64,000 nt of DNA. Origin: Candidatus Poribacteria bacterium (GTDB lineage: Bacteria > Poribacteria > WGA-4E > PCPOR2b). Below are positions 41,779 to 62,891 of the stretch, piece after piece. Under the pieces are notes generated by a model. The model worked only from the letters and a program-made list of their open reading frames with translations. It made no database searches and was not told the DNA's origin. The translations under genes and the position numbers were made by a program. The stretch is taken from contig OZ244587.1 in NCBI GenBank assembly GCA_965218095.1, positions 4,256,001 to 4,320,000 of the forward strand. The letters run 5' to 3'. Position 1 is the first letter of the stretch. Each line of letters opens with the position of its first letter.

Positions 41779-42111
41779 ATGGCAGGAGATGCTTTAGGTT
41801 TAGTTGAAACTAGAGGGTTCGTCGCAAGCGTCGAAGCGGCTGATGCAATGGTCAAAGCAGCAAATGTTCAGCTCATCGGGTATGAAAAGATCGGTGGGGG
41901 ATATGTGACGGTCATGGTCCGTGGCGACGTTGGGGCTGTCAAAGCGGCGACAGATGTTGGTGCAGAAGCAGCCGCGCGGGTCGGTGAAGTGATATCCGTC
42001 CATGTCATCCCAAGGCCGCATGCAGAAGTTGAATCGATTTTATCCTCTCAGGGACAGTCCGAGAACAATACATTATCTATTGAAGTCGCCGGGGAGGAAT
42101 CATTAAGTTAA
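41779..42111 (+). CDS. Bacterial microcompartment shell hexamer (BMC-H; PduA/EutM/CcmK type) with acidic C-terminal tail
   Basis: ALGLVETRG...[11 protein letters not shown]...GDVGAVKAA...HVIPRPH. Confidence 0.95.
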
Positions 42112-42123
42112 GGAAAATAGCGC

Positions 42124-42831: not shown

Positions 42832-42841
42832 GGGAATCCAA

Positions 42842-43922: not shown

Positions 43923-45530
43923 ATGAAATTCCACATCCAGGTTGTTATTTTACTCGTGCTAACAATCTTCTTCTTGACATTATTAACAAATGTTGCCCAG
44001 GCAGACCATGAATATGATTACCTTTCAGATCGCCTGAGTCGTGAACATCGGGATGCAGGCGATGTTGAGGACTGGATCGAGCGAGGCAATGCGACTGTTA
44101 CCGCAAGCCCTCGTTTTGAAGATGGTATACGCTTGGCGGCGTGGGCAAGCGGATCGGATAAGAAGGGAAACTACGAATTTGCAATAGCCAGTGCGATTTA
44201 TCTCTTTGAAATTCCTCGACAGGCTCAGTACATCGAGATTCTGGTGCGCTACCGAGGGGAACCTCACAAATCGGACTTTGAGGATTATGAGGAAATTGCT
44301 GGTCGCGTTTGGATCCGCAATACCAAACGTGAATATTCCCGCCGGCGCTATGATGACGAGAATGAGGAGGAAACACTATACGGCAATACCTTCGTTTTGC
44401 GCGCAAAGCGCCGATCAGAGACAATAAAAATTGCAACGGCAGGGCATGTCGATAACGATCTACTTGAGATGCACATTGTTGCTGAAGATGGTGAACAGCT
44501 TGGCATAGAGTATATTGATGTTTCAACCTACCGACGACAGCCTGACGTCCGTGTCGTTCATCGTTATGCTCGAGATTATCGGTGGCGCCCCTGGCATAGA
44601 TATACTTATCTATACTTTTACGATGGTCCATTTTACTACTGTACCGATTTGGGTTACTATATTCGATGGAGTTATCCGATTTATGACCATCACTACCTCT
44701 CTATTCGCTACGCTTACGGCGACTACCTCCATCATTACTATCGCCGCTACCCCGATCACTACTATCGTTCCTATTCCAACAATGTGCATGTCCATGTTGA
44801 TAACGCTGTTAAAACGCAACGACGACTCAATCGCTGGACAGCGACACATGAAACCACCCGACGCGAATATACGCGAAGTCGATTGTCAACAACCTCATCA
44901 AAAACGAACAAAGCAAATGTACAGACCCGTGTTCGCTCATTAATTAGAGAAAACCGTCGGGAACCAGTTCTTGCTGATCGAGTTATCCAACGCGCTACTG
45001 TTTCTCGCAAACGGAGACGAATCGATGCAGAAGTTGAACTGAATACGGCAATAAAGGGGCAACGCGATTTCTCACGTTCCATTGATGACGCATCCACACG
45101 ATCCTACCGCGCAACTCAGGAGATACTAAAACACAAGCGGTATTCATCTGGCCGAAGGGATATGCGATCAAGGACAGAATCCCGTCTCTACCCCTACGAT
45201 CGTTTTCAGCTTTCTACAAAACAGAAGCGTTATTCATCTGACCAGGAGGATACCCGATCAAATGCTGAACGTCGTGCACGTCTCTATAATCGTTCGCGAT
45301 CTTCGGCAAGTCGACCGAGTGCAGCGCCTTCACGCAGCCAATCTCCAGGTTTAAGCAGCGGTACAAACAAACGCAAGCACTCATCTTCTTCCTCCTCACA
45401 CCGCCAAAAATCAACAACCCCGCAGGCACCGCAGGCAAGCTCAAGTTCATCCAGCCAGAGTGACGATGACGAAGAAAAAGATCGCAACCGCAATACCACA
45501 AGGACACAAAAACGTAAGCGAAGAAATTAG
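43923..45530 (+). CDS. Secreted hypothetical protein with Tyr/His-rich segment and long Arg/Ser-rich disordered tail
   Basis: AGGAGG RBS, signal peptide ending AQA, globular N-half, low-complexity C-half; followed by a terminator. Confidence 0.8.
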   Translation: MKFHIQVVILLVLTIFFLTLLTNVAQADHEYDYLSDRLSREHRDAGDVEDWIERGNATVTASPRFEDGIRLAAWASGSDKKGNYEFAIASAIYLFEIPRQAQYIEILVRYRGEPHKSDFEDYEEIAGRVWIRNTKREYSRRRYDDENEEETLYGNTFVLRAKRRSETIKIATAGHVDNDLLEMHIVAEDGEQLGIEYIDVSTYRRQPDVRVVHRYARDYRWRPWHRYTYLYFYDGPFYYCTDLGYYIRWSYPIYDHHYLSIRYAYGDYLHHYYRRYPDHYYRSYSNNVHVHVDNAVKTQRRLNRWTATHETTRREYTRSRLSTTSSKTNKANVQTRVRSLIRENRREPVLADRVIQRATVSRKRRRIDAEVELNTAIKGQRDFSRSIDDASTRSYRATQEILKHKRYSSGRRDMRSRTESRLYPYDRFQLSTKQKRYSSDQEDTRSNAERRARLYNRSRSSASRPSAAPSRSQSPGLSSGTNKRKHSSSSSSHRQKSTTPQAPQASSSSSSQSDDDEEKDRNRNTTRTQKRKRRN

Positions 45531-45651: not shown

Positions 45652-46351
45652 GGTTCTGTTGACATTTGAGTATAAGGTTGTGGCATAATAGAAGAATGAT
45701 GCCAATAACCTTACCCGATGACCAATGGAAAAAGATATACTCGTTTCTTCTAACTTGTCCCAACATCTATGTTGGCAACGAAGCGACAACACGCCGCTTT
45801 ATCGAAACTGTTCTCTGGGCGACCCGTAGCGGGGCTCAATGGCGGATTCTGCCAGACACCTATGGTAAATCGAACACCCTCTACAAGCGGTTTGCTCGGT
45901 GGTGCGACAAAGGGGTCTTCACACAGATGCACCACCACTTCGCCGCCGACCCCGATATCGAGTCGCTTATTGTGGACAGTACAATCATTCGAGCGCACCC
46001 GTCTGCGGCGGGTGCCGAAAAAAAAGGGTGGCACTGAAAACCAAGCGTTAGGTCGGTCTCGCGGGGGATTCAGTACAAAAATTCACATCACCGTTGACGG
46101 CCTGGGTAATCCACTAAGAATTCATCTGACACCCGGTCAAAGAAACGACATAGCGGAAGCAGAAGCGTTGATACTTGGATATAAAAGCGAGTATGTGATT
46201 GGAGACAAGGGATATGACTCCGACAATTTTATCGCGGTTATTGAGGCGAATGGAGCGATTGCGGTGATACCGCCAAAAAGTCATCGTGTGGATCAAAGAG
46301 ATTACGACAAACATCTGTACAAAGAGAGACATCTGGTTGAATGTTTCATTA
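45652..46351 (+). mobile_element. IS5-family (IS427-like, two-ORF -1 frameshift) copy 1, 3'-truncated
   Basis: IR GGTTCTGTTGACATTT; GAQWRILP, IVDSTIIRAH, slippery A8[20 protein letters not shown]; cut at a TA by copy 2. Confidence 0.9.
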
Positions 46352-47172
46352 GGTTCTGTTGACATTTGAGTATAAGGTTGTGGCATAATAGAAGAATGAC
46401 GCCAATAACCTTACCTGATGAACAATGGAATAAGATATACCGGTTTCTTCTAAGCTGTCCCACCATCTATGTTGGCGACGAAGCTGCTACACGCCGCTTC
46501 GTCGAAGCGGTTCTCTGAGTGACTCGTAGCGGGGCTCAATGGAGACTTCTACCAGACACCTATGGCAAATGGAACACCCTCTACAAGCGTTTTGCTCGAT
46601 GGTGCGACAAAGGTATCTTCACACAGATGCACCCCCACTTCGCCTCTGACCCCGATATCGAGTCGCTTATTGTGGACAGTACCATCTGCCGCGCTCACCC
46701 GTCTGCGGCGGGCGCCTTAAAAAAAACGGTGGGACTGAAAACCAAGCATTAGGTCGGTCTCGGGGCGGTTTCAGTACAAAAATTCACATCACAGTTGACG
46801 GACTAGGCAATCCGCTAAGAATTCATCTGACACCCGGTCAGAGACATGACATAACTGAGGCGGAAGGGTTGATAATCGGATATAACAGTGAATATGTGAT
46901 TGGAGACTAAGGGGTACGATTCGGACGCTTTTATCGCGGTTATTGAGGCAAATGGAGCGATTGCGGTGATACCGCCAAAAAGTCATCGTGTTGACCAAAG
47001 AACGTATGACAAACACTTATACAAAGAAAGACATCGGGTTAAATGTTTCATCAACAAGATAAAATGGTATCGTCGTATCTTCTCTCGGTTTGAGAAGCTA
47101 GCTGTCCGTTATTTTGGATTTCTCAGCTTTGTCTCCACTCTTATATGGCTCCCTTGAAATGTCAACAGAACC
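46352..47172 (+). mobile_element. IS5-family copy 2, full length but with nonsense and frameshift mutations
   Basis: Both IRs (GGTTCTGTTGACATTT / AAATGTCAACAGAACC), TA flanks; TGG to TGA near 46516. Confidence 0.9.
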
Positions 47173-47218: not shown

Positions 47219-47770
47219 TTGGCAAGATCTCAAGTGAAGTTATTTGTAATGACGCTATTGATTTCTGTTTTGTGCTTACTTTTTTTGGGGCAAGTCAGTT
47301 CGGCACAGTCAGACGAAGATCTTCACCTTGTTTCACCAATTGGTGCTGTTGCGCGTTCTGCTATCCTGCCTGGTTGGGGACAGTTCTATGCGCATAGCCG
47401 CTTTCAAGGCACTTCTTCCATGATTGGGACAAGCGGGCTTCTTATTGGTGCTTTGATTGCTCACCAATCCTTTCAAGATGTTTATAATAACGCGTATGTT
47501 CCGATAGCTCTAAACGCCCCGGATTCTCCAGAAGCCGCTTTCCAATACAATCGAGCGAATCAACGTTTTAAGCTTCGGCAGTTTTTCCTTTTTGCGGTGG
47601 TCGGTGTGTGGGCGTACAGTGTTATTGATTCCTACGTTGGCGCGAATTTGTACAACGCAACAACAAAAGCCAATCAACTCATCGACGATGCAAAACGGAT
47701 CGAAAAATTGAGTGTGCAACTTGAGGTAACTCCAACCCAACTTCATCTTGGTATTGTCAAATTCTTTTGA
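47219..47770 (+). CDS. DUF5683-like membrane/envelope protein
   Basis: Signal peptide; RSAILPGWGQFY and WAYSVIDSYV motifs; C-terminal Phe. Confidence 0.75.
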   Translation: MARSQVKLFVMTLLISVLCLLFLGQVSSAQSDEDLHLVSPIGAVARSAILPGWGQFYAHSRFQGTSSMIGTSGLLIGALIAHQSFQDVYNNAYVPIALNAPDSPEAAFQYNRANQRFKLRQFFLFAVVGVWAYSVIDSYVGANLYNATTKANQLIDDAKRIEKLSVQLEVTPTQLHLGIVKFF

Positions 47771-47812
47771 AAGGCTAGTGAACACAGCTTGGTTTATGGA
47801 GGTGTTTCATCC

Positions 47813-48391
47813 ATGTTAAAGATGTTTGCCAAAACAGCCGGCTTTTTGCTAATTTTGAGTTTTCTTTCAAATTGTGGAGATGTTCAGAATTTCAATACGC
47901 CCAAACAAGGAGAGACGATAGCAATCAATCGGGTTTTGAAAAATTGGCGCGAGGGTTATCAGAATGAAGATATCGAAATGTATATGAGTGCCTTCTGGGA
48001 AGAAGGATTCCTTTACACTTCGGATATGGGAACAGATAACGATCAAACAGATGACCTTGTTTTCGATGATATTCGAGACGAAAGAGATGCTGCGATTCGC
48101 GTTTTTAATAGATTCCAGGATATCGACATCGAGCTTTCTGAACCACCGGACGTGCAATTTTTGGGAGATCGGACACGAGCAGAGGTCAGAAACCATTATC
48201 GAATCGAAGGGTTTGTTGCCGACGGTGAATCTCTCGACGGAGGATTTACAGGATGGTTCGCAGAAGGAGATAATGTATTTACCCTTGAGCTCAGGACGAA
48301 CAGCAAGACAGGGAAGAAAGAATGGCGCATCACTGAGTGGCTTGATGAAGCGTTTAGCATAGAAGAGATCGAGGCTTCCAATAACCTCTAA
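47813..48391 (+). CDS. Lipoprotein with NTF2/SnoaL-like fold
   Basis: Lipobox FLSNC; INRVLKNWREGYQNEDIEMYMSAF start and WRITEW end typical of NTF2-like domains. Confidence 0.65.
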   Translation: MLKMFAKTAGFLLILSFLSNCGDVQNFNTPKQGETIAINRVLKNWREGYQNEDIEMYMSAFWEEGFLYTSDMGTDNDQTDDLVFDDIRDERDAAIRVFNRFQDIDIELSEPPDVQFLGDRTRAEVRNHYRIEGFVADGESLDGGFTGWFAEGDNVFTLELRTNSKTGKKEWRITEWLDEAFSIEEIEASNNL

Positions 48392-48496
48392 TTTTTCGGT
48401 CTTCAACACAAGCGTTGCTGGCAGGAATTCCATCCCGTCGGCAACTGGCCTTTCTTTGCTTATACTTGTCAACGGCATAAGTTGTGCTTCTCGGTT

Positions 48497-48561
48497 GTCA
48501 TCTTGAGCGAAGCGCAAAGATTCTCCGTGCTGAGATTTTTGTGCTTCGTTCAGATCGAACA
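48497..48561. repeat. Degenerate REP-like palindrome (GTCATCCTGAGCGAAGCGAAGGATCT family)
   Basis: GTCATCTTGAGCGAAGCGCAAAGATTCTC...GAGATTTTTGTGCTTCGTTCAGATCGAAC. Confidence 0.65.
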
Positions 48562-48589
48562 TATTGTTTCTTATTGCACCAACGAAGGG

Positions 48590-49950
48590 AGTAGCGGTTT
48601 CTTTGATTAATTCACCGCCAAGCAGAGGCAGCGCCAGGTAATTACTCCCTGGCTGATCTCTGTTTTTCTCCATCTGGTACTTGTGATTATCGTAGCATTG
48701 ACAATCAAGAATCAGATCGTGGAGATTGACGCCATCATCATTGAGTGAGTCGAATTGCCAGCGCAGTCGATGCATAAAGTCGAAAAACCGCTCGTCAATC
48801 GCATTCAGCCTAAAGTGGTGCTCAATCGATCTCTGAGACTGAGAAATCAGCCTAAACTCCACATCTCTTCGCCACCACAGATTGCAGAGATCGCTCGTGA
48901 ATCGCTAACACCCATTCGGCGCGATGTCGACTTTTCTCCAAAATTGCCGGACACCATCACGGCGCCGGTGATGACCGCCGCTAAAGCGTCAGCAGGTCGA
49001 CGTGATTTCGTTCTCGCATCGTCTACAGTGTCCTCGCCTGATGTCAGAACCGACGGAGGAATATTGACCAATCGTCTCCCTGCTCCGGGCCGGGGAAAGC
49101 CGCAATCAAATGCTATTGCTTCGATTGTTAAATCGACAGATGCAACCGATTCCGCGGATCTCTCCGCGGATCGTTTTACGAATCTCATCATGGTTCCCGA
49201 AAACAAACTAGGGGCAGTCCTCGTTGGTGAAAGAATGGATGTCCAAGGGCATATTTGGCTTAAATATTCGCTTTCCGATTGGTGGCAGGATCCGACAGCA
49301 ATACCGAGCTTCATGAAGTGGCTTGCTGAACATACACGTCTTCGCGCCGACATGAAATTTGCGGGGGGGCTTCGCATGACTGATTCGCGTATTCTCGACG
49401 CCCCCATTATTTTCATGACGGGGCACGACAAGGACATTGTTGTTGGGCGCAGTCTCGCTAAAGGTGGGCCATTGACCGATTCGTTCTCGGCAGAGGAGCG
49501 GATGGCTTTGCGGAAATACATCGTTGAACGGGGCGGGATGCTCTTTTTCGACGATTGTAGGTTTAATGGATTGTTCGCCGCTCAGGTTGCTGATGAACTT
49601 CAACAGATATTTCCCGAGTATCCACTTGAAAATATCCCGCACAGCCATGAAATTTACCAGATCTACTACTAGCTTCCCATTCCCCCAACCGGCGGTGATG
49701 TCTTTTGGGGGCTGAGAATAATCCGAAGGCTTCCAAATTCAAATATCAAAAAGGTATCACGATTGGACATCGGCTAGCTGTGATTTACAACCGCAAGGAC
49801 TATATGTGTGCGATGGAAACGATGGAGATTCAAAGCCGGATGATGTTGAGGTTGCGCCGATCGACGGATGTGCATCGGTTCATGACGAATCTGCTCGTCT
49901 ATGCGATGAAGCACGGTGGGAATACGGATAGATCTGCTTACAAATCCTAG
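48590..49950 (+). pseudogene. Second TonB-anchor + DUF4159 protein, disrupted
   Basis: Upstream of ORF 48755 the same frame reads PWLISVFLHLVLVIIVAL (S-x3-H TM); stops at 48608, 48746 and 49670, frameshift near 49705; SDWWQD, FMTGHD, GGMLFFDDC, KDYMCAME, RFMTNLLVYA match the paralog at 33334. Confidence 0.85.
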
Positions 49951-50204
49951 TACAGGAAAATGAACCATCTCCCAGATTTTGTTATCAGCTTGAGTTTTTT
50001 ACCGATTTGGGTTCTGCGTTTATCGTGAGTTTGGATTGACCCAAAATTTGCATGGCTTCCATCTTGATACTGCTTATCCAATCGCTATTTAGCCTGCCCA
50101 TACCTTCCGCCAGCCTTTTTCAAAATGTCCTGTCCGGCGATGTTGACCACAACGAAGTGGAAACGGTCGGCCGACGTTTCTTCTCAGAATCTATGTTAGC
50201 ATTA

Positions 50205-51024
50205 GGTTCTGTTGACATTTGAGTATAAGGTTGTGGCATAATAGAAGAATGATGCCAATAACCTTACCCGATGACCAATGGAAAAAGATATACTCGTTTC
50301 TTCTAACTTGTCCCAACATCTATGTTGGCAACGAAGCAACAACACGCCGCTTTATCGAAGCTGTTCTCTGGGCGACCCATAGCGGTGCTCAATGGAGACT
50401 TCTGCCAGACACCTATGGTAAATCGAACACCCTCTATAAGCGTTTTGCTCGGTGGTGCGACAAAGGGGGCTTCACACAGATCCACCACCACTTCGCCGCC
50501 GACCCCGATATCGAGTCGCTTATTGTGGACAGTACAATCATTCGAGCGCACCCGTCTGCGGCGGGTGCCGAAAAAAAAGGGTGGCACTGAAAACCAAGCG
50601 TTAGGTCGCTCTCGCGGGGGATTCAGTACAAAAATTCACATCACAGTTGACGGCCTGGGTAATCCACTAAGAATACATCTGACGCCCGGTCAAAGAAACG
50701 ACATAGCGGAAGCAGAAGCGTTTATACTTGGATATAAAAGTGAGTATGTGATTGGAGACAAGGGATATGACTCCGACAATTTTATCGCGGTTATTGAGGC
50801 GAATGGAGCGATTGCGGTGATACCGCCAAAAAGTCATCGTGTGGATCAAAGAGATTACGACAAACATCTGTACAAAGAGAGACATCTGGTTGAATGTTTC
50901 ATTAACAAGATAAAATGGTATCGCCGCATCTTCTCTCGGTTCGAGAAGTTAGCTATCCGTTATTTTGGATTTCTCAGCTTTGTCGCCACTCTTATTATGG
51001 CTCCCTTGAAATGTCAACAGAACC
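50205..51024 (+). mobile_element. IS5-family copy 3, near-intact
   Basis: Both IRs, TA duplication, orfA/orfB with A8G slippery site; a 1-nt insertion near the 3' end; interrupts a small degraded ORF. Confidence 0.92.
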
Positions 51025-51181
51025 TAGTACAAGATCGATTAATCCATTTACGGACGACCATTTTTCGTGCAGAAGATAATCTTTACTCAGATTAATCCAC
51101 GATATAGAAGAGATTAATTGTGATCTCATTTGATCTGAAAGGAGTGTCGTCTCAATGTGAAGAATTTAATAGAAAAAACAC

Positions 51182-51210
51182 TTGACAGAAAATTGCAGAA
51201 GTGGTATCTT
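51182..51210 (+). promoter_or_regulatory. Sigma-70 promoter about 420 nt upstream of the large envelope gene
   Basis: A-tract then TTGACA-17-TATCTT with TG. Confidence 0.65.
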
Positions 51211-51631
51211 AAAGGTTACTTTTTTTGAGGTATAAATTTATTAAAAAAAAGCATTGACCAAATACAGTTAGGAGTTACGCACTTCAAATTGAACAAACCG
51301 TATTATGCCTGCATTTCGAATCCTGAATCCAGAACAAGATGCAAGATACAGGATGCAGACATAGCTTGAGTCTGTAGAATTAGTTGCGTAAGTCCTATAC
51401 AGGTTAAACCTGAGTTTTTTCGCCTTTTTAATGAATCCTTTTTAAAGGAGGTTACGATATGTTGTACTACTGACGCAAGTTGAAATAGGTGCGGGATCGA
51501 TAAATGGTCAAAAATTTGACAATTGCAGTCAATTCCCAAATTGTTCAACTTGATTCTTGATGAACCTGATTACGAAAGTTTTATACCTTAACTTTTACAT
51601 CAAGTAATTTATGATTTCCTCAAGGAGGCAA

Positions 51632-54600
51632 ATGAAAATAATGCAGGTTTCAAAACACTCACCTGATGTGTTGTTTATTGTAGCCGGGTTAATAGGCTGT
51701 TTCGTGCTTTATGGATGCGCCACAACCAGCCTTGGTCCACAGGAACCGCTTTTACCAACAGTCGAAGGGCAAGCGCATTTTTCGGCTCGCTTCCAATTAG
51801 AAGAAGAACCACAATTCTTCTATGACTTGTTCGGTAAAGAACTCCTCGAAGGTAATGAAGTTTACAATTACCGTGAACAGAAACAGTTTGATAGGAACGG
51901 AGAACTGATTGTGGGTTGGACCGGTCAGCTTGATAGTGAAAGGTTCTCCGCACAGTTAGACCGTCAGATCCTAACTGAAGATAACTTCCGTGGTAGATTT
52001 ACACAGTTCGCAATCGGGGACAACATGCGTATTAAACCCGCAACGCTATTTCCGAATCGATATATCATCCACAAGACGGAATTCGATGGTTTCCGGTGGG
52101 ATATTTCTTTCTCACAAGAACGTCACCTTTTTACCTTGTTGAATTCGCGTATTTCTAACCCGGTACAGTTGTCTGATGCAGCAGCGAACCTTGCACCAAC
52201 GCTTGGTCGCCGGAACGGTTTGAGCGACGATGTCGGTCTTCGTCATATTGAGAATGCCCGCTTGATCGGATTCCGCGCGCAAGGGTTGCTGGGAGATGTG
52301 TTCCGCGTCGGATTCACCTACGTCAATCTCCACAAAGAACACCCAGAAAGAGTTGAGAATCCTCTGTTCGGCGGCACGGTGGCGAATACGCCTCCGGAGC
52401 GTATCGTTATTGTCTTCCGCGACGATTCACCGGAAGATAATCACGTTGACATCTTAGAGCACGACCTTGAGAGACCCGAACACGTAAGATTTATTCAGGG
52501 CGGGGTCGGCGTTGCAGTTAAGGGGCTAAAGGTGCATCTTGTCACACAACCCCTTGGCGGTTTTCCTGAGCAGGGTCCTGACCGTCCGCCGGGACGTGAG
52601 CGCACGAGAACGATTCCAGTTTTTCTCGACGCTATTACTGCCGTAGAGGGTAGCAATGACCCCCGTGAGACCCCTGATGGCTACAAAATTGTCGAGGGGT
52701 TCGATAAAATGCAGTACGTATTAGACTTTAACGATCCTGACCCGCTTAGTACTGCGGACGAACCGATCGACCCCCGAACAGTAAAGTCAATCGAGTTTGA
52801 GATGGACGTTGCAGGCGACTATAATATCGCTTTCATCGGATTTAGCGAAGCAAACAAGTCAGAGGATCCGCTAGGGGCAGAATGGATTAAAACCGAGGAC
52901 GGTCATATCGAAATGCCTTACCGTGATGTGATTGAAGCCCCCGGCAATTATGGTCAATCAGACCACTATACGGATAACAGGGCAGCGCTTCGCGATGCCC
53001 CAAGTAGATGGAAGGATGAAGGGAAACCGCGTAAGATTCGGTATCGCTATGGTGCGGCACGTGCTGGAGTGATGTATGGTCTTGATCTTGAAGGAACTCT
53101 GTTTAATACCTTTGTCCGTGCGCATTACTCGATTAATGGCAAATTTAAGCAGTATCCAACCATTCCCAAAGACCAAGTTGGTTTCAGCCGGACGAATCCT
53201 GAAATTGAAGGGGCTAGCATCACCATAGATGAGCGCGAAACCCTGGACGATGGGGTTACACCTAACCCTACCTTCCGAGTCGCCCTGGATGCCAATGGTA
53301 TCCCGACATACTCTGTAACGGAGGGAGAAAGATTTGAAGCCAAGTTAAATGGGAATCCGGATAGTGACGGAGAGATGGGCCGTGAAACAGCGTGGTTTAT
53401 TAACCTCAAGCAGCGTTTCGGCAAGATCTTCCTCGAAGAGACTGTCTACCACATTGATCCGGGTTACACGACAACCTATCATAACTTCGGTGCAAACGAC
53501 TCAAGGGATGCGACCTATTCTCTTGAACGAACTCCTGAATCTGGTGCGGAAATCCTTCCGTATGATCAAATCGATTATCAACTTGTCGAAGACGATGATG
53601 ACGACGACGACTGGCCAGATAGCATCGATTTTGACGGCGTCCTGCCGCAAGCCGATGACCGTGACCAGAATGGCATCCTCGATTTCCAAGAAGACTTCCT
53701 CATCTTTGAGGCAGATCCACCGGTTTTTGAAGATCTCCTTGACCTGAATAACAACGGGATTGTTGATTCATTAGAAGATGATTTTGAACCGCAATATGAG
53801 TACGGTATCGACCGCGAAGGATACCATATCGCCGCTAGCTACGACTTACTCGAGAACTTGACCGTCAAACTGGGCTGGTTAAACGAAAGCGAGATTTCCA
53901 GCCGGCGGAAAAATAATTCAAAATACATTCATCTTATTTATCAGCGCGACATTCCAGATTTTGGAACGATTCTGTTCCAGAATCGTTTGCTCCGCGTTGA
54001 GGATGATATTCCGGAGTACTCGATTACCTTGCGCCCCGGTGAACTGGCTACCGTGCAACAAAGTGATGCACTTGACTTCTTCAACGCGCGAGTGAATCTG
54101 ACAAGCATCCAGTTTCTTTACACTGCGATTCCAAACTTGCAACTTGAAACGAAGCTCCTCGTTGACTGGCGGAAGCAGTTGGAACCGGATCCCGAGGAAG
54201 CGATTGCGAAGGATTTTCCGCAAGATGACATAACATTAGAGAAGGATGATCGCGTCGATTTCATGGTGCCGGACGAGCAGGTGCGTGCGGATGGTGAGAA
54301 GCGCGCATCCCCGTTCTATCCGGATCATGGGCTTAACCCACTAGATCCAGAAGATACCGGCTTAATCTATAATCCAGATAACTGGATACCCCGCCGTTAT
54401 ACGGAAAAGACTGTCCGTAACCAGGTCACCATTATCAAAGCTAGATATGAAATTCCATTAGGCGATTTGCCAGGGGTTGACAAAATTGGTGAAGATTTAA
54501 CACTGACACCGATGGTTAAATATATCTGGACTCGGGCCTTCGATCGCGCCGCTGAGAAGATTGGCGAGGTACTTAATCCCACTCTATTTGTTCCTGACTC

Positions 54601-54961
54601 TCCGGAGGTAGTCGAATATCTGCGATTTAACCGGCGGAGTCGTGAGGATGTTATGGGCGTTCGTTTGGATTATCAGTTCACCCAAAGAGTCAATATCCTC
54701 GGTGGTTTCCAGTACCGTAAATTTACCAACCGAGATCAGAATATCAAAAGCTATCTAACCACTCCAGCGTTTGTGGATGCAGATCTTCCGATCCTGTTCC
54801 GTCCAGACATACGGACACGTATCTTTGAAGTTCAGGCAATCAACCGTGGTGAATGGCTTGGTTTCAATATTGTCATTCTCGCCGGTTTCAGAAGAACCAC
54901 AATCTTGCTTGAGCACACGACAAGTAATACGACGTTCGTTCGAGCAATGATGGGATTCTAA
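51632..54961 (+). CDS. Large hypothetical outer-membrane (lipo)protein, probable beta-barrel with Ca-binding loops
   Basis: AAGGAGG RBS; lipobox-like VLYGC; alternating beta-strand segments; DDDDDDDWPD, DRDQNGILD, DLNNNGIVD motifs; ends FVRAMMGF (terminal Phe). Confidence 0.75.
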   Translation: MKIMQVSKHSPDVLFIVAGLIGCFVLYGCATTSLGPQEPLLPTVEGQAHFSARFQLEEEPQFFYDLFGKELLEGNEVYNYREQKQFDRNGELIVGWTGQLDSERFSAQLDRQILTEDNFRGRFTQFAIGDNMRIKPATLFPNRYIIHKTEFDGFRWDISFSQERHLFTLLNSRISNPVQLSDAAANLAPTLGRRNGLSDDVGLRHIENARLIGFRAQGLLGDVFRVGFTYVNLHKEHPERVENPLFGGTVANTPPERIVIVFRDDSPEDNHVDILEHDLERPEHVRFIQGGVGVAVKGLKVHLVTQPLGGFPEQGPDRPPGRERTRTIPVFLDAITAVEGSNDPRETPDGYKIVEGFDKMQYVLDFNDPDPLSTADEPIDPRTVKSIEFEMDVAGDYNIAFIGFSEANKSEDPLGAEWIKTEDGHIEMPYRDVIEAPGNYGQSDHYTDNRAALRDAPSRWKDEGKPRKIRYRYGAARAGVMYGLDLEGTLFNTFVRAHYSINGKFKQYPTIPKDQVGFSRTNPEIEGASITIDERETLDDGVTPNPTFRVALDANGIPTYSVTEGERFEAKLNGNPDSDGEMGRETAWFINLKQRFGKIFLEETVYHIDPGYTTTYHNFGANDSRDATYSLERTPESGAEILPYDQIDYQLVEDDDDDDDWPDSIDFDGVLPQADDRDQNGILDFQEDFLIFEADPPVFEDLLDLNNNGIVDSLEDDFEPQYEYGIDREGYHIAASYDLLENLTVKLGWLNESEISSRRKNNSKYIHLIYQRDIPDFGTILFQNRLLRVEDDIPEYSITLRPGELATVQQSDALDFFNARVNLTSIQFLYTAIPNLQLETKLLVDWRKQLEPDPEEAIAKDFPQDDITLEKDDRVDFMVPDEQVRADGEKRASPFYPDHGLNPLDPEDTGLIYNPDNWIPRRYTEKTVRNQVTIIKARYEIPLGDLPGVDKIGEDLTLTPMVKYIWTRAFDRAAEKIGEVLNPTLFVPDSPEVVEYLRFNRRSREDVMGVRLDYQFTQRVNILGGFQYRKFTNRDQNIKSYLTTPAFVDADLPILFRPDIRTRIFEVQAINRGEWLGFNIVILAGFRRTTILLEHTTSNTTFVRAMMGF

Positions 54962-54962
54962 C

Positions 54963-55004
54963 AAAAAAAAGAGCACCGAGCATTTTTATGCTTGGTGCTC
55001 TTTT
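54963..55004 (+). terminator. Intrinsic terminator
   Basis: AAAAGAGCACCGAGCAT-tttt-ATGCTTGGTGCTCTTTT. Confidence 0.85.
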
Positions 55005-55310
55005 AGATTTTACCGAAACTTTCAAAAAACGAAGGTGTTTATAAAGCTAGGATTTCGCATTGTATTCATATACGACAGCGGGCTTTGGTCGCAGTTCTGA
55101 ACGAAAGTTCAGGCTCAAAGTTCAAGTCCGTTGAACCGGGCTAAGGTCTCTACGTTTAGTTAGCTTGAGTAGAGATGTAACTCTTACGTCTCTACGTCTC
55201 GAATTGAAAGTTGAAGTGAAGTTTCGTTGTAGCACTAAGGAGATGTCTGATTCAGACACGCTCTTCAGAATTTTTAACCTGAGATGTCAGAACTCCAATA
55301 GGAGGAAAAT

Positions 55311-56297
55311 ATGAAACGCGTGAGTTTAACCTTAATCTTATCTAGCCTATTGATTGTTTACGGCGCGGTTGCATTTGCCCAGGATACAATCGGTACGGTG
55401 CGTGGCAACGTCGTAGATACCACAACGGCACAAACCCCAATTGCTGATGTCCGAGTCGTTATTGTTGGCACTGATGGCTCAGAGAAGGAAGGTATGACAG
55501 ATGACGCTGGTGAATATGAAATATCCGGTGTGTCCCCGGGTCGTTATCTGCTTAGTATTTACAAAAACGCCTACAAGGAACGAATGGGTAAACCTGTCAC
55601 CGTTGTCGCTGGAGGCGATCACTACGTGCCGATGAAAATGACCAAAAAGGACACTATCGTCAGTTTCTTCCAAAAGTTTGGGCTTGTTTTCTGGCCGCTT
55701 CTCCTCTGTTCTGTGGCTGCGTTGACCTTCATTATTGAACGTCTCTTTACTTTTGTAAGGAGCCGCTCCAAGCTCGGAACAGAACAGTTCATGGCAAATA
55801 TCACCGATTCTCTGCGTAATGATAACATTATGGAAGCGGTTTCAACCTGCGAAGAGGCAGGCGGTCCGCTCGCAAACGTTCTGAAAGCAGGCTTGTTGAG
55901 ATATAGCCAGGCCCAGATTGAAGAGCGGGAGATTACGAAAGAAGAGGTACAGGAAGCGATTCAAGAAGCGGGCCTCCTTGAAATTCCTGAACTTGAACGA
56001 AACACACCTGTGATTAGTACAGTCGCGGTTATCTCTCCTTTGTTTGGTCTCCTCGGTACTGTGATGGGTATGATTAGCGCATTTACCACGATTGCGTTAG
56101 AAGGCACTGGTGACCCACAGGCGCTTGCCGGTGGTATTTCTCAAGCATTGCTAACTACTGCTGGTGGCTTAACTGTTGCCATTCCTTGCATTATTTTCGC
56201 CCAGATCTTTGAGAGCTGGGTCAACCGATTTGTGCTTGAGATTGAGCAGGTTTCGACGGAAATCGTAAACCAACTGATCCTTGGTCAATCAACATAA
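55311..56297 (+). CDS. exbB: MotA/TolQ/ExbB proton channel with N-terminal carboxypeptidase-regulatory-like beta-sandwich
   Basis: Signal peptide; GTVRGNVVD...TDDAGEYEISGVSPGRYLL domain; WPLLLCS...IIER; SPLFGLLGTVMGMI..F; GGISQALLTTAGGL.VAIP. Confidence 0.92.
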   Translation: MKRVSLTLILSSLLIVYGAVAFAQDTIGTVRGNVVDTTTAQTPIADVRVVIVGTDGSEKEGMTDDAGEYEISGVSPGRYLLSIYKNAYKERMGKPVTVVAGGDHYVPMKMTKKDTIVSFFQKFGLVFWPLLLCSVAALTFIIERLFTFVRSRSKLGTEQFMANITDSLRNDNIMEAVSTCEEAGGPLANVLKAGLLRYSQAQIEEREITKEEVQEAIQEAGLLEIPELERNTPVISTVAVISPLFGLLGTVMGMISAFTTIALEGTGDPQALAGGISQALLTTAGGLTVAIPCIIFAQIFESWVNRFVLEIEQVSTEIVNQLILGQST

Positions 56298-56368
56298 AGA
56301 CTTCACTGCTCTCCCTGCCAACTCATAAAGTGGCAGAGAGAGCTATCATGAACAGGAGGTAGTCGAAG

Positions 56369-56815
56369 ATGGCAGATCCGAGAGAACCCGGTGGCGTGAC
56401 ACGGCTTGCCGCTAGGGATAGGAGAGGGCCTAAACTCGATATGGCTCCGATGATTGACTGTGTGTTTCTGCTTCTGATTTTCTTCATGGTTTCGACCAGT
56501 TTCGCACCGATGCCTGGTATCCGTGTTCAATTACCCCCTCCGGGCAAACCGAGCCCCAATAAACCGAAGGGGCTCATTGTAAGGATTGCTAACCCTGAAG
56601 GGGCTCAGAAATTTGGCACAATGATCTTGAGTGACGAGATTGTCAACATCAACCAGATGTTTAGCGAATTTATCCATGCTCCTGAAGAGATCAAGAATAT
56701 GCTAATCATCCAGTCAGAACGGGATGTTTTGCATGAGCAGATTATTAGTGTGATGGATATTGCCAAGCAAGCAGGTATAGACAAAGTTGGCTTTGCAGTA
56801 GTGGCAAGGGAATAA
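56369..56815 (+). CDS. exbD: ExbD/TolR family protein
   Basis: MAPMIDCVFLLLIFFMV with essential Asp; VMDIAKQAGI. Confidence 0.92.
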   Translation: MADPREPGGVTRLAARDRRGPKLDMAPMIDCVFLLLIFFMVSTSFAPMPGIRVQLPPPGKPSPNKPKGLIVRIANPEGAQKFGTMILSDEIVNINQMFSEFIHAPEEIKNMLIIQSERDVLHEQIISVMDIAKQAGIDKVGFAVVARE

Positions 56816-56829
56816 CAAAGGAGGATACG

Positions 56830-57252
56830 ATGGCTATGCAATTTAGGCGGATAAAAGGTGGGGAGCGAGAGCAAGCCCTGATGATGGAACCAATGATTGA
56901 TTGTGTGTTTTTGCTATTGATCTTCTTTATGGTATCGGCGGTTATGCGCGTTCCTCCACCTTTTACAATTACTCTGCCAGAGTCAGCTACGAAGCACGAT
57001 TTCCCTCGAAAAAAATTCAACCTCTATATCAGCCCAGATGGAAGGGTTTCCTTTGATGATCTGGAAATGCTTACGCTAGACGACATGGAAATGTTCCTGT
57101 CAGCAAAAGAGAGTCAAATTAGTACACTCATTATCAAGGCTGATAGACGCGCCAAACACGGCGTCGTTATTGATGTCATGGAACGTGCGAAACGTCGATT
57201 TAGTAAACCAGAAGGTCAGGAGATTGCTTTAGCAGTTTCAGAGGACGAGTAA
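56830..57252 (+). CDS. exbD: Second ExbD/TolR family protein
   Basis: MEPMIDCVFLLLIFFMV; ITLPES; IKADRRAKHGVVIDVM. Confidence 0.92.
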   Translation: MAMQFRRIKGGEREQALMMEPMIDCVFLLLIFFMVSAVMRVPPPFTITLPESATKHDFPRKKFNLYISPDGRVSFDDLEMLTLDDMEMFLSAKESQISTLIIKADRRAKHGVVIDVMERAKRRFSKPEGQEIALAVSEDE

Positions 57253-57286
57253 ACGCTCAATTGATTTTTAGAGTCCCAATTTCATT

Positions 57287-57313
57287 AAAGGCAGCCAGTG
57301 TGCTGCCTTTTTT
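57287..57313 (+). terminator. Intrinsic terminator closing exbBDD
   Basis: AAAGGCAGC-cagtgt-GCTGCCTTTTTT. Confidence 0.85.
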
Positions 57314-57404
57314 ATTTTCCTTGCAATCCTGCCTGATACAAGGAGACAGGTATGACTCATGTGAAAAATAAGTGCAGAATAACGAAGATAATAGGACATT
57401 TCAG

Positions 57405-58742
57405 ATGAATGAACGCGAAAAGATCCTCATTGTTGACGATGAACCCGATACCATCCTCATCTTACGAGATCGCCTTGAGATGGACGGTTACGAGGTTGTC
57501 ACTGCCACTGATGGACATGAAGCTCTTGTGCTGATCGATCAGGACTTACCGGATCTGGTGCTTCTGGACATTCAAATGCCACGCATGGACGGATTGGAAA
57601 CCCTTGCGCACATCCATCAAAAATACCCCGGTTTACTCGTGCTCATGTTGACGGCGCATGGAACGATCCAACGCGCTGTCGAGACAACGAAGCGCGGGAC
57701 TTACGATTTTTTGGAGAAACCCTTCCAACCAGAACATATTAAACAGAAGGTCGATCAGGCATTAGAGCATCAGCGCACAACTGAACACAGTGCCAGAGAT
57801 GAGCTCATTCACAGCTATGAAGAGATCGTGGGCGAAAGTCCGCGCATCCTTGAAGTCTTGAAGATCATCGAAAAAGTTTCGGATACTAACTCGACGGTGC
57901 TGATCCAAGGGGAAAGCGGAACGGGAAAAGAGTTGGTTGCTCGTGCACTCCATCGAAATAGTTCGCGCAGAAATAAAGAGATGGTTGTGGTGAATTGTGC
58001 CGCAATTCCAGATCACCTTTTAGAAAGCGAACTCTTTGGACACGAGCGTGGCGCTTTCACTGGAGCGACCTATCAAAAGATTGGAAAGTTTGAACGTGCA
58101 CACGGCAGTACCCTATTTCTCGACGAGGTCGGAGATATGTCAATTGAACTGCAAGCCAAGTTGTTACGTGCCTTGCAGGAAGGGGAAATCGAGCACCTTG
58201 GCGGGACAAAGATGATTCATGTTGACACCCGAATCATTGCGGCAACTAATCAGGATCTGCGCCAGTCCATTGAAACCGGAGCATTCCGTCAAGACCTCTA
58301 CTACCGTCTGAATATGATTCCGATTCACCTACCCCCACTGCGCGGACGCCGGGAGGATATCTTGATATTAGCTGAGTATTTTCTGCGAAAACATGGCCAA
58401 GCCCACAATCAACCGGTACGACTAATTAGCCAGAAGGCAAGAGACCTCCTCATGCAATACAACTGGCCTGGCAATGCGCGAGAACTGGAATATTTCATCC
58501 TACGAGCCGTCCTTTTTGCTGAGGGCGATGCGATCCTTCCAAAACACCTCCCCGAAGAAATCCAACCCGCGACGCAGGATTTCGCTTCGCACAACATGAC
58601 AATGAAGGAAATGGAGAAAGAGTTGATCCTCAAGACCCTTGAGCGGATGGCGGGCAATCGCACGCAAACGGCACAGGTTTTGGGGATTAGCTTGCGTTCC
58701 TTGCAGTATAAACTGAAGAGTTATGCAGAAGAGGCAAGGTAG
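57405..58742 (+). CDS. Sigma-54-dependent response regulator (NtrC/AtoC family)
   Basis: Receiver (VDDE, LLDIQMP, EKP), GESGTGKE, GAFTGA, LDEVG, DLYYRL, WPGN, Fis-type HTH. Confidence 0.95.
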   Translation: MNEREKILIVDDEPDTILILRDRLEMDGYEVVTATDGHEALVLIDQDLPDLVLLDIQMPRMDGLETLAHIHQKYPGLLVLMLTAHGTIQRAVETTKRGTYDFLEKPFQPEHIKQKVDQALEHQRTTEHSARDELIHSYEEIVGESPRILEVLKIIEKVSDTNSTVLIQGESGTGKELVARALHRNSSRRNKEMVVVNCAAIPDHLLESELFGHERGAFTGATYQKIGKFERAHGSTLFLDEVGDMSIELQAKLLRALQEGEIEHLGGTKMIHVDTRIIAATNQDLRQSIETGAFRQDLYYRLNMIPIHLPPLRGRREDILILAEYFLRKHGQAHNQPVRLISQKARDLLMQYNWPGNARELEYFILRAVLFAEGDAILPKHLPEEIQPATQDFASHNMTMKEMEKELILKTLERMAGNRTQTAQVLGISLRSLQYKLKSYAEEAR

Positions 58743-59157: not shown

Positions 59158-62100
59158 ATGAAAGCTGACCTCGCTATCGCTCAAATTTTCATTGGGTTAC
59201 TCATCGCAATCGCCGCACTTATCATCGGCATTTTTATGTGTCGGCGTGGAGTGCGGACAAGAGATCTCAAACTCCGGGTAAAAGCATACCCCATCTGGAT
59301 TGGGGGCGGTTGCCTGACTATTTTACTAGGTTCTGTTGACATTTGAGTATAAGGTTGTGGCATAATAGAAGAATGACGCCAATAACCTTACCTGATGAAC
59401 AATGGAATAAGATATACCGGTTTCTTCTAAGCTGTCTCACCATCTAGCTGCTAAGCTGCTACACGCCGCTTCGTCGAAGCCGTTCTGTGGGTGACTCGTA
59501 GCGGCGCTCAATGGAGACTTCTACCAGACACCTATGGCAAATGGAACACCCGCTACAAGCGGTTTGCTCGATGGTGCGACAAAGGTATCTTCACACAGAT
59601 GCACCACCACTTCGCCTCTGACCCCGATATCGAGTCGCTTATTGTGGACAGTACCATCTGCCGCGCTCACCCGTCTGCGGCGGGCACCTTAAAAAGCTGG
59701 TGCCTTAAAAGCATTAGGTCGGTCTCGGGGCGGTTTCAGTACAAAAATTCACATCACCGTTGACGGACTAGGCAATCCCCTAAGAATTCATCTGACACCC
59801 GGTCAGAGACATGACATAACTGAGGCAGAAGGGTTGATAATCGGATATAATAGTGAATATGTGATTGGAGACAAGGGGTACGATTCGGACGCTTTTATCG
59901 CCGTTATTGAGGCGAATGGAGCGATTGCGGTGATACCGCCCAAAAGTCATCGTGTTGACCAAAGAACGTATGACAAACACTTATACAAAGAGAGACATCG
60001 GGTTGAATGTTTCATCAACAAGATAAAATGGTATCGTCGTATCTTCTCTCGGTTTGAGAAGCTAGCTGTCCGTTATTTTGGATTTCTCAGCTTTGTCGCC
60101 ACTCTTATATGGCTCCCTTGAAATGTCAACAGAACCTAGTCTGGCCTGCCATGGCTTATCTCTATACGGAACATCTCTGGTTCGAGAGTGTTGGATATGA
60201 CAATATTTTTTGGAAGCTCCTGAAAATACGGTGGGGCAGCTTTGCCAAATTTGCCCTCATCGCAATTGGGTTTATGGGATTGAATCTCTTCATCGGCGAT
60301 CGGCTCTGTCCGGTATCAAGCGAATTTGCTCGGTGGACTCGCGAGCGCACAATACGATTCTATCAAGGGATTCTAATCTTAATCCTTCTCGCCGGGTGCT
60401 TCCTTTCGGCACCCATGATGCTCCTCTGGGACGATTTCCTCCGCTACGACAATCGCGCGTTGACCGGCGCAATAGAACCCATTTTCCAAAAGGACATCGG
60501 TTTTTACCTCTTTACATTTCCGATCTATCGTTGGGTGAGTTTGTGGCTGAAAGCTCTGCTATGGGTAAACCTGCTTGTGGTTGGGCTTCTGTACAATTTT
60601 TATCACCGTCGCGACCCGCAGACGATGGCAAAAGTTGAACACCGTTTAGTTTTCCACGCCTCTGTTCTATGGCTGATGTTACTTGGCGTCTCACTCTGGC
60701 GGAGCCAAATCAATATCTGGAATGTCTTGTACACTGTGCTCGCACGCCTTGGGGGCTGGGCCGTGTCAACGGTATGGGGTACGTCGATGACAAGCTGATT
60801 GGTGCTTATCACCTCTACATGGTGTGCCTCATTGGGGTCGGCAGCCTCATTCTTCTTAATCTCTTATGGCGGAAACGGGTAATCTGGTATTCAGTAATCG
60901 TGGCTTGGGGAGCGAGCTATCTGATTCTGATCCAAATCTATCCGCTTTTCGTCCACTGGATGTAAGTCCGTCCAAATTCACTGACGGCAGAAGTGCGATT
61001 CCTTGGTAAGCATATCGAATCAACCCGTCAAGCATTCGGATTGGATCAGATTGAGGAAAGAGATCACATCAAGGGGGCTGCCACGCGCGAAATGATTAGC
61101 CGGAATACTGAAATCAAAGAGAATATTCAGTTGTGGGATCGGCGGGTGCTTTATGAGGTGCTAATGGATCAGCAATTCATTGAGCGATACTATCGATTTC
61201 ATCCCTATACCGATGTTGATCGATATTGGGTGAACGGTCAGTATCGGCAGGTACTGACCGCCGCCAGAGAGATCGCGAAATTATCCGAAGCGCAGGACTG
61301 GGTGAATCAGAAACTCAAGTATACTCACGGATATGGCGTTTGTGTTGTCCCCGTGAATGAATTCATGGAAGAAGACGCCAATCCAAATTTCTGGGTTAAG
61401 GGTATTTACCCGATGGAAAGCACTTATCCTGAACTTGCTGTGACACACCCCCAAATCTACTACGGTGAGTTGACGAAAGACTATGTTATTGTAAACACAA
61501 AGCAGAAGGAGATAAATCCGAAAGGTGAGCAGTACCAAGGATCTGGAGGTATCAAAATTGGCAGTTGGTTCAGACGGCTCTGCTTCGGAACCCGATTTGA
61601 TTTCTGGCGCGTGCTGCTTTCCACAGATCCCACTCCAGAAAGCAAGGTGCTCTTCTGGCGAAAGATTGGGACCCGCAACCCAGGCTCCTCCAAAACAGTA
61701 GGAGATCGAATTTCACACATTGCGCCCTTTCTCAAATATGATCCCGATCCCTATATCGTGATTGGAGATGACGGGCAGCTCTGGTGGATTGTCGATACTT
61801 ATATCACGAGTCGCAGCTACCCCAATGCAAAGACCTCTGTTGATGAGACCAACCTTAAAAAAAACCCGCTTTACTCTGAACCCACTTTTGATCGCTTTAA
61901 CTATATTCGCAACCCCGCCGTCGCTATTGTCAACGCCTACAGTGGCAAAGTCAATTTTTACTTTACCAAAGCCAATGAACCGATTACGGACGCCTATCAG
62001 AAAACCTTTTCGAATCTCTTCAAGAGCAAAGATCAAATTCCAGCAGGATTGCAAAATCACCTCCGATACCCCGATTATCTGACACGCATCCAGGCAGAGA

Positions 62101-62891
62101 TGTATGCGGATTATCATGTACAGGAGGCGGAGATTTTTTACCCCGGATCCGACAGATGGAATATTCCCCAGGAAAAATACTATTCATCGTATCAAACGAT
62201 AGTGCCCTACTATGCCATGCTCAAGTTACCGGGAGAGAACACACCAGAGTTTGTGAATATGGTTCCTTTTTCACCACTGCCACCACAACAAGAGGGCAAC
62301 CTACAACAGGAGGGCCGGCTCATGAATGCCTAGCTTGTCGCCCGCAGTGACGCAGAGTATTACGGAAAATTGGTTGTCTATACGCTGCCCAAGAAGGAGA
62401 CGGTTATCGGCCCGACCCGGGTCGAAGGCAGGATAGAAACAGAATTATCGGAAAAACTGACGCTCTGGAACCAACAAGGGACGACGGTGATTCGGGGCAA
62501 TTTGCTGGTGATTCCTCTCGCCAATACCCTGTTTTATGTGGAACCGATCTATCTCAAGCCAGAAAATATTGATCGTCCCAGTCTAACGGTTGTAGCAGTT
62601 CAAGCAGGAGCGGAGTTTGCCTACGCAGACACCTTTGATGAAGCCCTGCAAAAGATCTTCGGTATTGGGATTAGGGTTGAATCGGAGGCGGGAACAACGG
62701 ACGAAGCCACAGCAGAGCTACTGCTAACCCTGGATCAATTAATCGAACAGGCGAATCAAAACCTTGAATTGTATTTGGGGCTAACCGGGAGGGGCGAATT
62801 CGAGAAAGCGGCTCAGGCGTTAATGGATCTGAAGCACAACTTAAAGGCGCTGGAGTCGGGGCAATACCGGAAGAAAGCAGAAAAAACGTAA
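59158..62891 (+). pseudogene. UPF0182 family membrane protein, interrupted by IS5, a frameshift and two stops
   Basis: Removing the IS gives TILLVWPAMAYLYTEHLWFESVGY; KDIGFYLF, TRQAFGL, DVDRY, YTHGYG, PQIYYGE, DPDPY, NYIRN, RYP, IRGNLLVIP, YVEPIY; stops at 60963 and 62331. Confidence 0.9.
59329..60136 (+). mobile_element. IS5-family copy 4 (degenerate) inserted at CTAG in the UPF0182 gene
   Basis: Both IRs, TA duplication, internal deletions. Confidence 0.92.

Follow-up and report, generated by a model that had tools for sequence, protein, structure and literature searches.

We analysed a window of 64,000 nucleotides of a Candidatus Poribacteria genome (assembly GCA_965218095.1, contig OZ244587.1, positions 4,256,001 to 4,320,000 of the forward strand) in which an exbB-exbD-exbD operon encodes a proton-driven motor beside a giant outer-membrane barrel lipoprotein. 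The account that we favour, at somewhat better than even odds, is that this operon is a shared motor hub which drives transducers with DUF4159 heads besides the TonB proteins of the cell. In its working this is a Ton/Tol-type force-transducing system, and it is a member of the Ton system only in its TonB-serving role. The source genome is a single contig of 6.35 Mb and is 94% complete. Coordinates are those of the window unless they are given as genome positions or with a locus number; the genes and main sites described between 33334 and 58742 lie on the forward strand.

The motor operon and its place in the genome

The first gene of the operon (55311-56297) encodes an ExbB/TolQ-type motor pentamer subunit with a signal peptide, a MotA_ExbB domain and an extra periplasmic CarboxypepD_reg domain. 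It is followed by ExbD1 (56369-56815, Asp30) and ExbD2 (56830-57252, Asp24), and an intrinsic terminator at 57287-57310 (z -3.4) closes the operon. The ExbD Asp is invariant in 20/20 rows of both ExbD alignments and the GTV/GTI and TTA threonine motifs of ExbB are kept, confirming a preliminary description of the window which had reported intact proton-path residues, this terminator and no adjacent tonB. A stable hairpin (z -4.4) between exbB and exbD1, at 56307-56343, may tune subunit stoichiometry. Stand-alone proteins resembling only the CarboxypepD_reg domain of ExbB are encoded at 813070-813456 and 5789562-5790356 of the genome and at L034:7641-8144, and such proteins adjoin the conserved gene block described below in some relatives.

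Exactly two ExbD matches are present in this genome, both in the window operon, together with two true ExbBs; a third ExbB match is an unrelated 802-aa protein. Among the 31 Poribacteria genomes examined the same ExbD pair makes up the sole complete ExbDs in 31/31, with three weak partial extras, and TonB_C genes are found in every one (1-7 copies each). The preliminary description had noted neither a tonB nor a TonB-dependent transporter (TBDT), which holds within the window, where no TonB_C or TBDT was found, and fails genome-wide: there are five TonB_C genes (four canonical and one divergent) and 16 TBDT-barrel matches in approximately 15 frames, one of them about 14 kb past the window end. 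Since the window pair are the sole complete ExbDs, yet TonB_C occurs in 31/31 genomes, the motor must, judging from this gene content, also power ordinary Ton import; it is thus not dedicated, and no private non-Ton device. TolB_N was not found in this genome by a search that was positive in two control genomes, and none of five OmpA-like matches in this genome was above the Pal cut-off.

A further cluster at genome positions 1335501-1344339 (L246) encodes a 1,128-aa TPR protein, a 604-aa weakly TBDT-like barrel, an ExbB paralogue, a divergent TonB-like protein and a TPR lipoprotein, without an exbD. Possibly it is the second part of an operon that has been split and, because its own exbD is missing, it would borrow the window ExbDs.

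TonB-like arms with DUF4159 and vWA heads

An intact TonB-like DUF4159 protein is encoded at 33334-34818, with an S-x3-H helix, a D-box-like stretch, a Pro-rich linker and a DUF4159 head (Pfam 85 bits). Its anchor matches a TonB-anchor profile at E 1.3e-7, and relatives that are 70-85% identical occur in 30/30 other genomes in varying contexts, making it a plausible working client of the motor. Intact S-x3-H DUF4159 proteins are present in 31/31 genomes; this genome has 17 DUF4159 loci, ten of which are intact with an N-terminal helix and a Pro-rich linker. Scanning this genome for the S-x3-H helix pattern gave 18 open reading frames (ORFs), comprising four TonB, eight DUF4159, five vWA and one other. 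The anchor profile, a hidden Markov model (HMM) made from the N-terminal 56 residues of 25 TonBs from 29 loci of other genomes, was run against 27,126 ORFs of this genome and gave 15 matches at E<0.001: four TonB, nine DUF4159 and two vWA, and nothing besides. The five S-x3-H-anchored vWA proteins (genome positions 172668, 848691, 2390491, 3263753 and 6213964; L240-L244) have the design of vWA force transducers, and Poribacteria are not among the phyla named for such transducers in section 8 of PMC12204202.

The D-box has been described as an alternation of hydrophobic and hydrophilic residues flanked by Pro in the available text of Loll et al. (PMC10907165), and by eye this pattern is seen following the helix in operon DUF4159s of other phyla. 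A complex prediction with the ExbD1 and ExbD2 periplasmic domains and residues 29-62 of the 33334 protein (score 0.01, mark 0.32) speaks neither for nor against an interaction. DUF4159 was put in a clan with ThuA and GATase1-like families according to the text seen of the Pfam release note, which is the only paper naming DUF4159 among Creative Commons-licensed PMC articles and bioRxiv; searches of these same sources, which leave subscription journals uncovered, showed no account of the barrel family or of DUF4159 arms.

Barrel loci in other phyla

Relatives of the window barrel were sought in metagenomes in a scan ranked on one distant query, which gave at least 74 loci, 72 of them listed with a barrel ORF. 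The 72 form 32 clusters at 60% identity, and the names suggest Zixibacteria, Ignavibacteria, Kryptonia and Latescibacterota/Gemmatimonadota. The recurrent gene order begins with a cargo gene, a PorV-like gene, one or more barrels, a TPR protein of approximately 1,050 aa, ExbB and one or two ExbDs, and continues with an anchored DUF4159, a lipoprotein that is often fused to a second DUF4159, DUF5683 and a small lipoprotein. ExbD is present in 21/72 listed loci, and 19 of these 21 have DUF4159, located directly after exbD in 17, directly before exbB in one and farther away in one; the two loci lacking it both stop at a contig edge. Over all listed loci, DUF4159 was found in 28/72 (11 clusters), TPR in 42/72 and DUF5683 in 18/72. 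The gene before the barrel, for 59 listed loci, was PorV-like in 33 and encoded a C-terminal domain (CTD) cargo in 21. All 19 cargo proteins scanned carry an FlgD_ig/CHU_C tail of the type IX secretion (T9SS) kind, and nine carry an F5/8-C domain. Like TBDTs, many barrel paralogues are arranged as tandem copies or have no motor beside them. No TonB_C was detected in the 74 listed loci, using a narrow four-sequence HMM and Pfam on part of 657 ORFs, within the locus DNA only.

The TPR protein of the distant operons has the 1,128-aa TPR protein of this genome as its best match in 30/30 cases, with about 20% identity in one alignment, and kinship between the two is a lead only. A tree of 20 ExbB rows, which has long branches and lacks a canonical outgroup, does not bear on orthology. 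At L170:14089-15279 and L172:802-2049, about 130-150 residues without a Pfam match extend the C-terminus of the lipoprotein that follows the DUF4159 arm, in the place that a second DUF4159 takes in other loci.

The giant barrel lipoprotein

The gene at 51632-54961 encodes a 1,109-aa protein whose earlier description as a barrel-like outer-membrane lipoprotein is borne out by Cys29 in its lipobox, by its terminal Phe and by the barrel that AlphaFold2 models with confidence (102 sequences, pLDDT 82, pTM 0.82). Approximately 24-26 long strands, counted from a secondary-structure list without coordinates, are predicted, with barrel strands starting by about residue 92-112. The model also has an inserted beta-sandwich at about residues 247-476, and there is an acidic Ca-motif-like loop at about 640-730 that is 36% Asp/Glu. 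The protein has no match in Pfam, NCBIfam or PDB sequences, a barrel-profile search of PDB giving nothing credible. As a TonB-dependent transporter it matches neither the PF00593 barrel nor the PF07715 plug, and it lies outside the PF00593 set of the genome. On the model, it is a barrel of an unnamed family without a close solved relative or plug match.

Homologues of the protein that carry a name come from Ca. Poribacteria, and full-length orthologues occur in 60/61 genomes. A profile search found 286 barrel relatives, with most of the listed full-length ones being 850-1,060 aa in length and about 25% identical, and in this genome the profile of the relatives matches the 51632 protein end to end (E 7e-120) plus one 777-aa paralogue. 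A plasmid search with a distant barrel as query gave zero matches. Structural comparison of the whole barrel with Foldseek and VIA returned generic barrels only (TM <=0.21, best Z 12.2, rmsd 9-11), the polysaccharide porins PgaA and PelB being among the tied matches. SprA, LptD and SlpA were ranked by Foldseek, but because their rmsd is >17 Å no kinship to them is claimed. The inserted domain was also folded alone (pLDDT 84); its structural matches were uninformative and lend no support to a role in binding carbohydrate.

A sigma70-like promoter candidate upstream of the barrel (51182-51210) is a consensus match only, in a region where the count of such matches is no higher than in shuffles. 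After the barrel, a 17-bp hairpin followed by U-rich bases (54967-55004; dG -27.5, z -8.2) is a probable terminator between the barrel and motor genes; by a loose criterion, and without a shuffled control, such a hairpin is found in 65/79 loci. In family-f2 genomes (L044, L047) the barrel is present in full length a second time, as a copy about 58% identical that has no motor genes, and in family f3 a short gene duplicating the N-terminal lipoprotein segment of the barrel lies just upstream of it (L038:7586-7906, L040:12013-12423, L041:11688-12143).

The conserved gene block in Poribacteria

The genes around the barrel and motor correspond to the published 'BMC-A region' of Poribacteria (Jahn et al. 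2016, PMC5087111). In the available text of that paper the block holds a bacterial microcompartment (BMC) shell protein, PduL, an ExbB with a carboxypeptidase-regulatory domain, two ExbDs and an exopolysaccharide protein; expression of the motor genes, which have a transcript to themselves, is put at 2.6-4.9 times the housekeeping level, and they are read as Ton components, with B12 import for propanediol use proposed. The paper also names a gene 'RhoGEF (COG5422)'. RNA contigs in our analysis span the region, and a ranking of expression is not possible from them.

Synteny was followed in 20 retrieved regions around barrel matches, of which 18 are orthologous and two are second copies without a motor, and in 80 Poribacteria loci from a genome collection that overlaps the genomes of those 20 regions; 78 of the loci have enough downstream DNA and 70 enough upstream DNA. 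The order barrel-exbB-exbD is present in 78/78, and tonB in 0/78. Upstream, PduL, the 43923 gene, DUF5683 and the NTF2-like gene are present in 70/70 loci, and BMC in 67/70. In the window, the block starts with the BMC shell protein and PduL plus a 254-aa protein that has no name (41701-43606), followed by a conserved exported protein with a Tyr-rich and Arg/Ser-rich tail (43923-45530), which has zero Pfam or NCBIfam matches and belongs to no known family. The DUF5683 protein (47219-47770, Pfam 44 bits) is as previously described. Next to it lies a conserved lipoprotein (47789-48391), which had earlier been called NTF2-like. The protein is probably NTF2-like by its Atlas neighbours; Pfam gives nothing, and in Atlas unnamed clusters score 0.95-0.97 and NTF2-clan neighbours only 0.83-0.84. 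The usual occupant of the place between this gene and the barrel is a wzc-like gene, intact in 55/70 loci.

In the window that place is disrupted. The DUF4159 gene with an S-x3-H anchor that had been reported there is a pseudogene (48611-49950), with the in-frame start missing, TGA at 48746, TAG at 49670 and a frameshift at about 49700-49711. These lesions are real and not assembly or sequencing errors, because a contig from run X4 (another study and a second strain) shares them, differing by two insertions and by seven substitutions that all fall outside the stops, and a contig from run X2 is identical over 48194-50229, which spans the pseudogene. A check of co-occurrence, suggested with the preliminary description, gave DUF4159 at 0/70 orthologous Poribacteria loci; therefore the local copy is, on sequence grounds, a dead one placed there by recent insertion. 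Its anchor still scores E 7e-5 on the TonB-anchor HMM. The closest intact relatives are L278:988-2691 and L279:1222-2955, in which a PF00712 domain (DNA polymerase III beta-clamp N, about 30 bits, over the cut-off) precedes the TonB-like helix and which differ in this from the window pseudogene, where that domain is missing. In genome G004 (L288) such a gene is followed directly by a tonB.

The pseudogene is followed by a remnant of a gene for a Wzc-like polysaccharide co-polymerase (49977-50201, tblastn E 1.5e-15; NCBIfam Wzc/chain-length matches were below cut-off) and then by an IS5-like element (50219-51008), identified by tblastn with a genomic copy. The co-oriented genes upstream of the motor are no continuous unit: the IS5-like element and the wzc-like remnant lie among them, and the hairpin parts them from exbB. 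For Wzx/Wzy export, an intact co-polymerase with an outer-membrane polysaccharide export partner is not present at the window locus, which has the wzc-like remnant only. Two more IS5-like transposase copies, located by tblastn with a genomic copy, lie inside the block at 45666-47157 and are missing from the same place in 17/18 orthologous regions; with a further copy at 59343-60121 there are four copies in 15 kb, and as 268 strong IS5-like high-scoring segment pairs are found genome-wide, the genome is IS-rich. Straight behind an IS element, a UPF0182 gene (60109-62891) is apparently split into three ORFs. The NtrC-type sigma54 activator at 57372-58742 is as described and lies outside the conserved block; such a gene follows exbD in only 15/78 orthologous loci, and a role as block regulator is unsupported.

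Proposed mechanism

The exbB-exbD-exbD operon would be the one general-purpose 5:2 motor of Poribacteria, driven by protons and transcribed alone, which powers the orphan TonBs and their TBDTs. It probably also engages arms with the same anchor, having DUF4159 heads (ten intact in this genome) or vWA heads (five). Proton flow turns ExbD within ExbB, as is established for this motor family. Motors of this kind dock their arms by an S-x3-H helix and a motor box (PMC12204202). From these motifs, the S-x3-H helix of an arm would dock on ExbB and its D-box-like strand on ExbD, and a rigid linker would transmit force to the DUF4159 head. The head may in turn act on the plug-less barrel, directly or by way of the lipoprotein or TPR protein, and this is the weakest step.

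The Poribacteria barrel, DUF5683 and exbBD may be the remains of an operon that Zixibacteria, Ignavibacteria, Kryptonia and Latescibacterota/Gemmatimonadota still have in full and in which a DUF4159 arm would stand in the place of TonB beside exbD, near a TPR scaffold, a lipoprotein and the barrel, with a partner predicted to be exported by T9SS and often bearing a glycan-binding domain. From these sequence comparisons, we consider it likely that DUF4159 arms engage this motor, and that they act on this barrel family to have a little less than an even chance. The notion of DUF4159-tipped transducers put forward in the preliminary description therefore survives through the intact S-x3-H copies in 31/31 genomes, the anchor-profile matches and the cross-phylum operons; its local example is dead, and action of the head on the barrel is something that we infer. 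A dedicated non-Ton machine, as first proposed, is not what was found, because DUF4159 is at 0/70 loci and TonB_C in 31/31 genomes.

Several observations weigh against the proposed hub and its link to the barrel. The seeds of the TonB-anchor HMM were picked by an S/A-x3-H pattern, and the HMM misses anchors from outside Poribacteria (best E 0.26). Of the 19 operon DUF4159s, two are without the His and eight have Ala instead of Ser. The 21 listed ExbD loci represent six barrel clusters, and the 18 DUF4159-adjacent loci represent five. The ExbBs of one cluster stand apart on a long branch of their own, possibly as neighbours without kinship, and 16 of 34 listed loci with at least 6 kb of downstream DNA have no motor. 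In Poribacteria, the strong hairpin parts the barrel from exbB, and no DUF4159, TPR, PorV or cargo gene occurs in the block (18 regions/70 loci). Since BMC and PduL, which are unrelated genes, are just as conserved (67-70/70), Poribacteria synteny is weak evidence of partnership. For the inserted beta-sandwich the best Z was 5.5, with zero Foldseek matches at E<=0.001.

One alternative is an ordinary housekeeping Ton motor which serves TonB and TBDT import alone, with the barrel a passenger in a conserved multi-function block and the DUF4159 anchors plain membrane tethers. The uniqueness of the ExbD pair in a genome whose TonBs and TBDTs lie elsewhere, the equal synteny of BMC and PduL, the hairpin, the dead local DUF4159 and the Ton and possible B12 import reading in the available text of PMC5087111 all agree with it. 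We nevertheless find this explanation improbable, as it gives no account of why DUF4159 and vWA anchors, and not those of other membrane proteins, score on the TonB-anchor profile, and it leaves the barrel-ExbBD-DUF4159-DUF5683 operons in four other lineages unexplained.

A second possibility, which we judge still less probable, is that type IX secretion or surface display draws its energy from the motor and the DUF4159 arms in phyla without GldLM, the barrel being the dock or release site for type-B CTD cargo. Away from the locus, this genome encodes a SprA-like protein of 2,177 aa (TIGR04189 158 bits, cut-off 200, E 1.4e-46), with no match in a PDB sequence search, as well as PorU (424.9, cut-off 420), nine PorV-family genes above cut-off and 59 FlgD_ig matches, and SprA_N matches occur in 39/41 genomes. 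GldL was not found in 31/31 genomes, and GldM and GldN were not found in this genome, in searches without a positive control. The distant operons open with cargo and a PorV-like gene, and SprA and ExbB are both among the leading Poribacteria proteins of a sponge proteome. A signal-peptide DUF4159 gene stands behind porU, a small ORF and porV at genome positions 1121222-1130180 (L239), which together with the SprA-like gene at 3805743-3812276 (L207) makes up a type IX secretion kit in Poribacteria. However, with a separate SprA-like translocon the barrel is not needed as translocon, and no T9SS gene is in the Poribacteria block (70 loci). The idea that the barrel replaces SprA was dropped because a SprA-like gene is present.

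That the barrel is an energised capsule or exopolysaccharide export pore working with the neighbouring Wzc-like protein is very improbable: the wzc-like gene lies directly upstream of the barrel in 55/70 loci, an SLBB/Poly_export gene follows exbD2 in three family-f4 loci (3/18 orthologous regions) and PgaA and PelB are among the tied structural matches, but one entire genus has lost the wzc-like gene, which is also broken in this window, with the barrel still about 80% identical, no Wzc-like cluster recurs beside the listed non-Poribacteria barrels, and the structural matches are generic.

Returning to the shared hub, if DUF4159 arms do act on the barrel, its job would by analogy be energised uptake or gating under a surface-bound lid, in the logic of SusCD, to which we give a chance just short of even within this reading. 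We prefer surface-lid uptake to polysaccharide export or to the energising of T9SS, since the barrels multiply with varied glycan-binding partners and the motors do not. A wider proposition, which we hold tentatively and think doubtful, is that the barrel family is a new class of plug-less outer-membrane machine energised by the proton motive force, driven by ExbBD through DUF4159 arms and capped by T9SS-delivered surface proteins. Poribacteria, Zixibacteria, Ignavibacteria, Kryptonia and Latescibacterota/Gemmatimonadota would in that case possess, next to TBDTs, a second type of energised transporter, which may also energise type IX secretion where GldLM is missing.

If the hub is as proposed, a single motor in Poribacteria would drive arms with three kinds of head (TonB_C, DUF4159 and vWA). 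The classic arms of ExbBD/TolQR motors are TonB and TolA. Arms with vWA heads were proposed only in 2025 (PMC12204202), and DUF4159 would be a further head type, conserved in all 31 Poribacteria genomes examined, expanded here to about ten copies, and connected with a family of large barrels without a name or solved relative. This would give DUF4159 a testable function and suggest where T9SS-type export may get its energy in phyla in which GldLM was not found. It would also cast in a new light a gene block that a dominant sponge symbiont expresses highly.

Comparison with known systems

The Myxococcus AglRQS-Glt gliding motor also has one ExbB-like and two ExbD-like subunits, TPR scaffolds and outer-membrane barrels. 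It differs in that no Glt family was above cut-off among the proteins scanned, a scan that was not genome-wide. In SusC/SusD utilisomes, and for T9SS type-B cargo with PorP-like partners, a barrel is paired with a surface glycan-binding partner and many pairs are served per motor. Unlike SusC, the barrel described here is no TBDT; in place of a SusD lipoprotein it has a T9SS cargo as partner, and this partner is missing from the Poribacteria block. The BMC-A region paper (PMC5087111), in its available text, describes no barrel and no DUF4159 arms. The Ton system shares the same motor with intact residues, and the TonBs and TBDTs of this genome have no other ExbD; in contrast to it, the operon here is without tonB and has two different ExbDs and an extra ExbB periplasmic domain, and the barrel beside the motor has no TBDT barrel or plug match.

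The closest likeness is to the vWA-headed transducers of Williams-Jones et al. (2025, PMC12204202), which according to the text seen have a transmembrane helix with S-x3-H, a motor box, a Pro-rich linker and a head other than that of TonB, and are syntenic with TPR, with a tolQ-like gene and with two tolR-like genes that differ from each other. DUF4159 adjoins the motor in 18 of the 21 listed non-Poribacteria ExbD loci, whereas it does so in 0/70 in Poribacteria. The head here differs in being DUF4159 ('DUF' has no mention in the main text seen of that paper, nor 'DUF4159' in its supplement), and the arms are associated with T9SS cargo and with a large barrel that has no name, and in Poribacteria are scattered and expanded. 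DUF4159-headed transducers are best read as a variant of this vWA-headed class.

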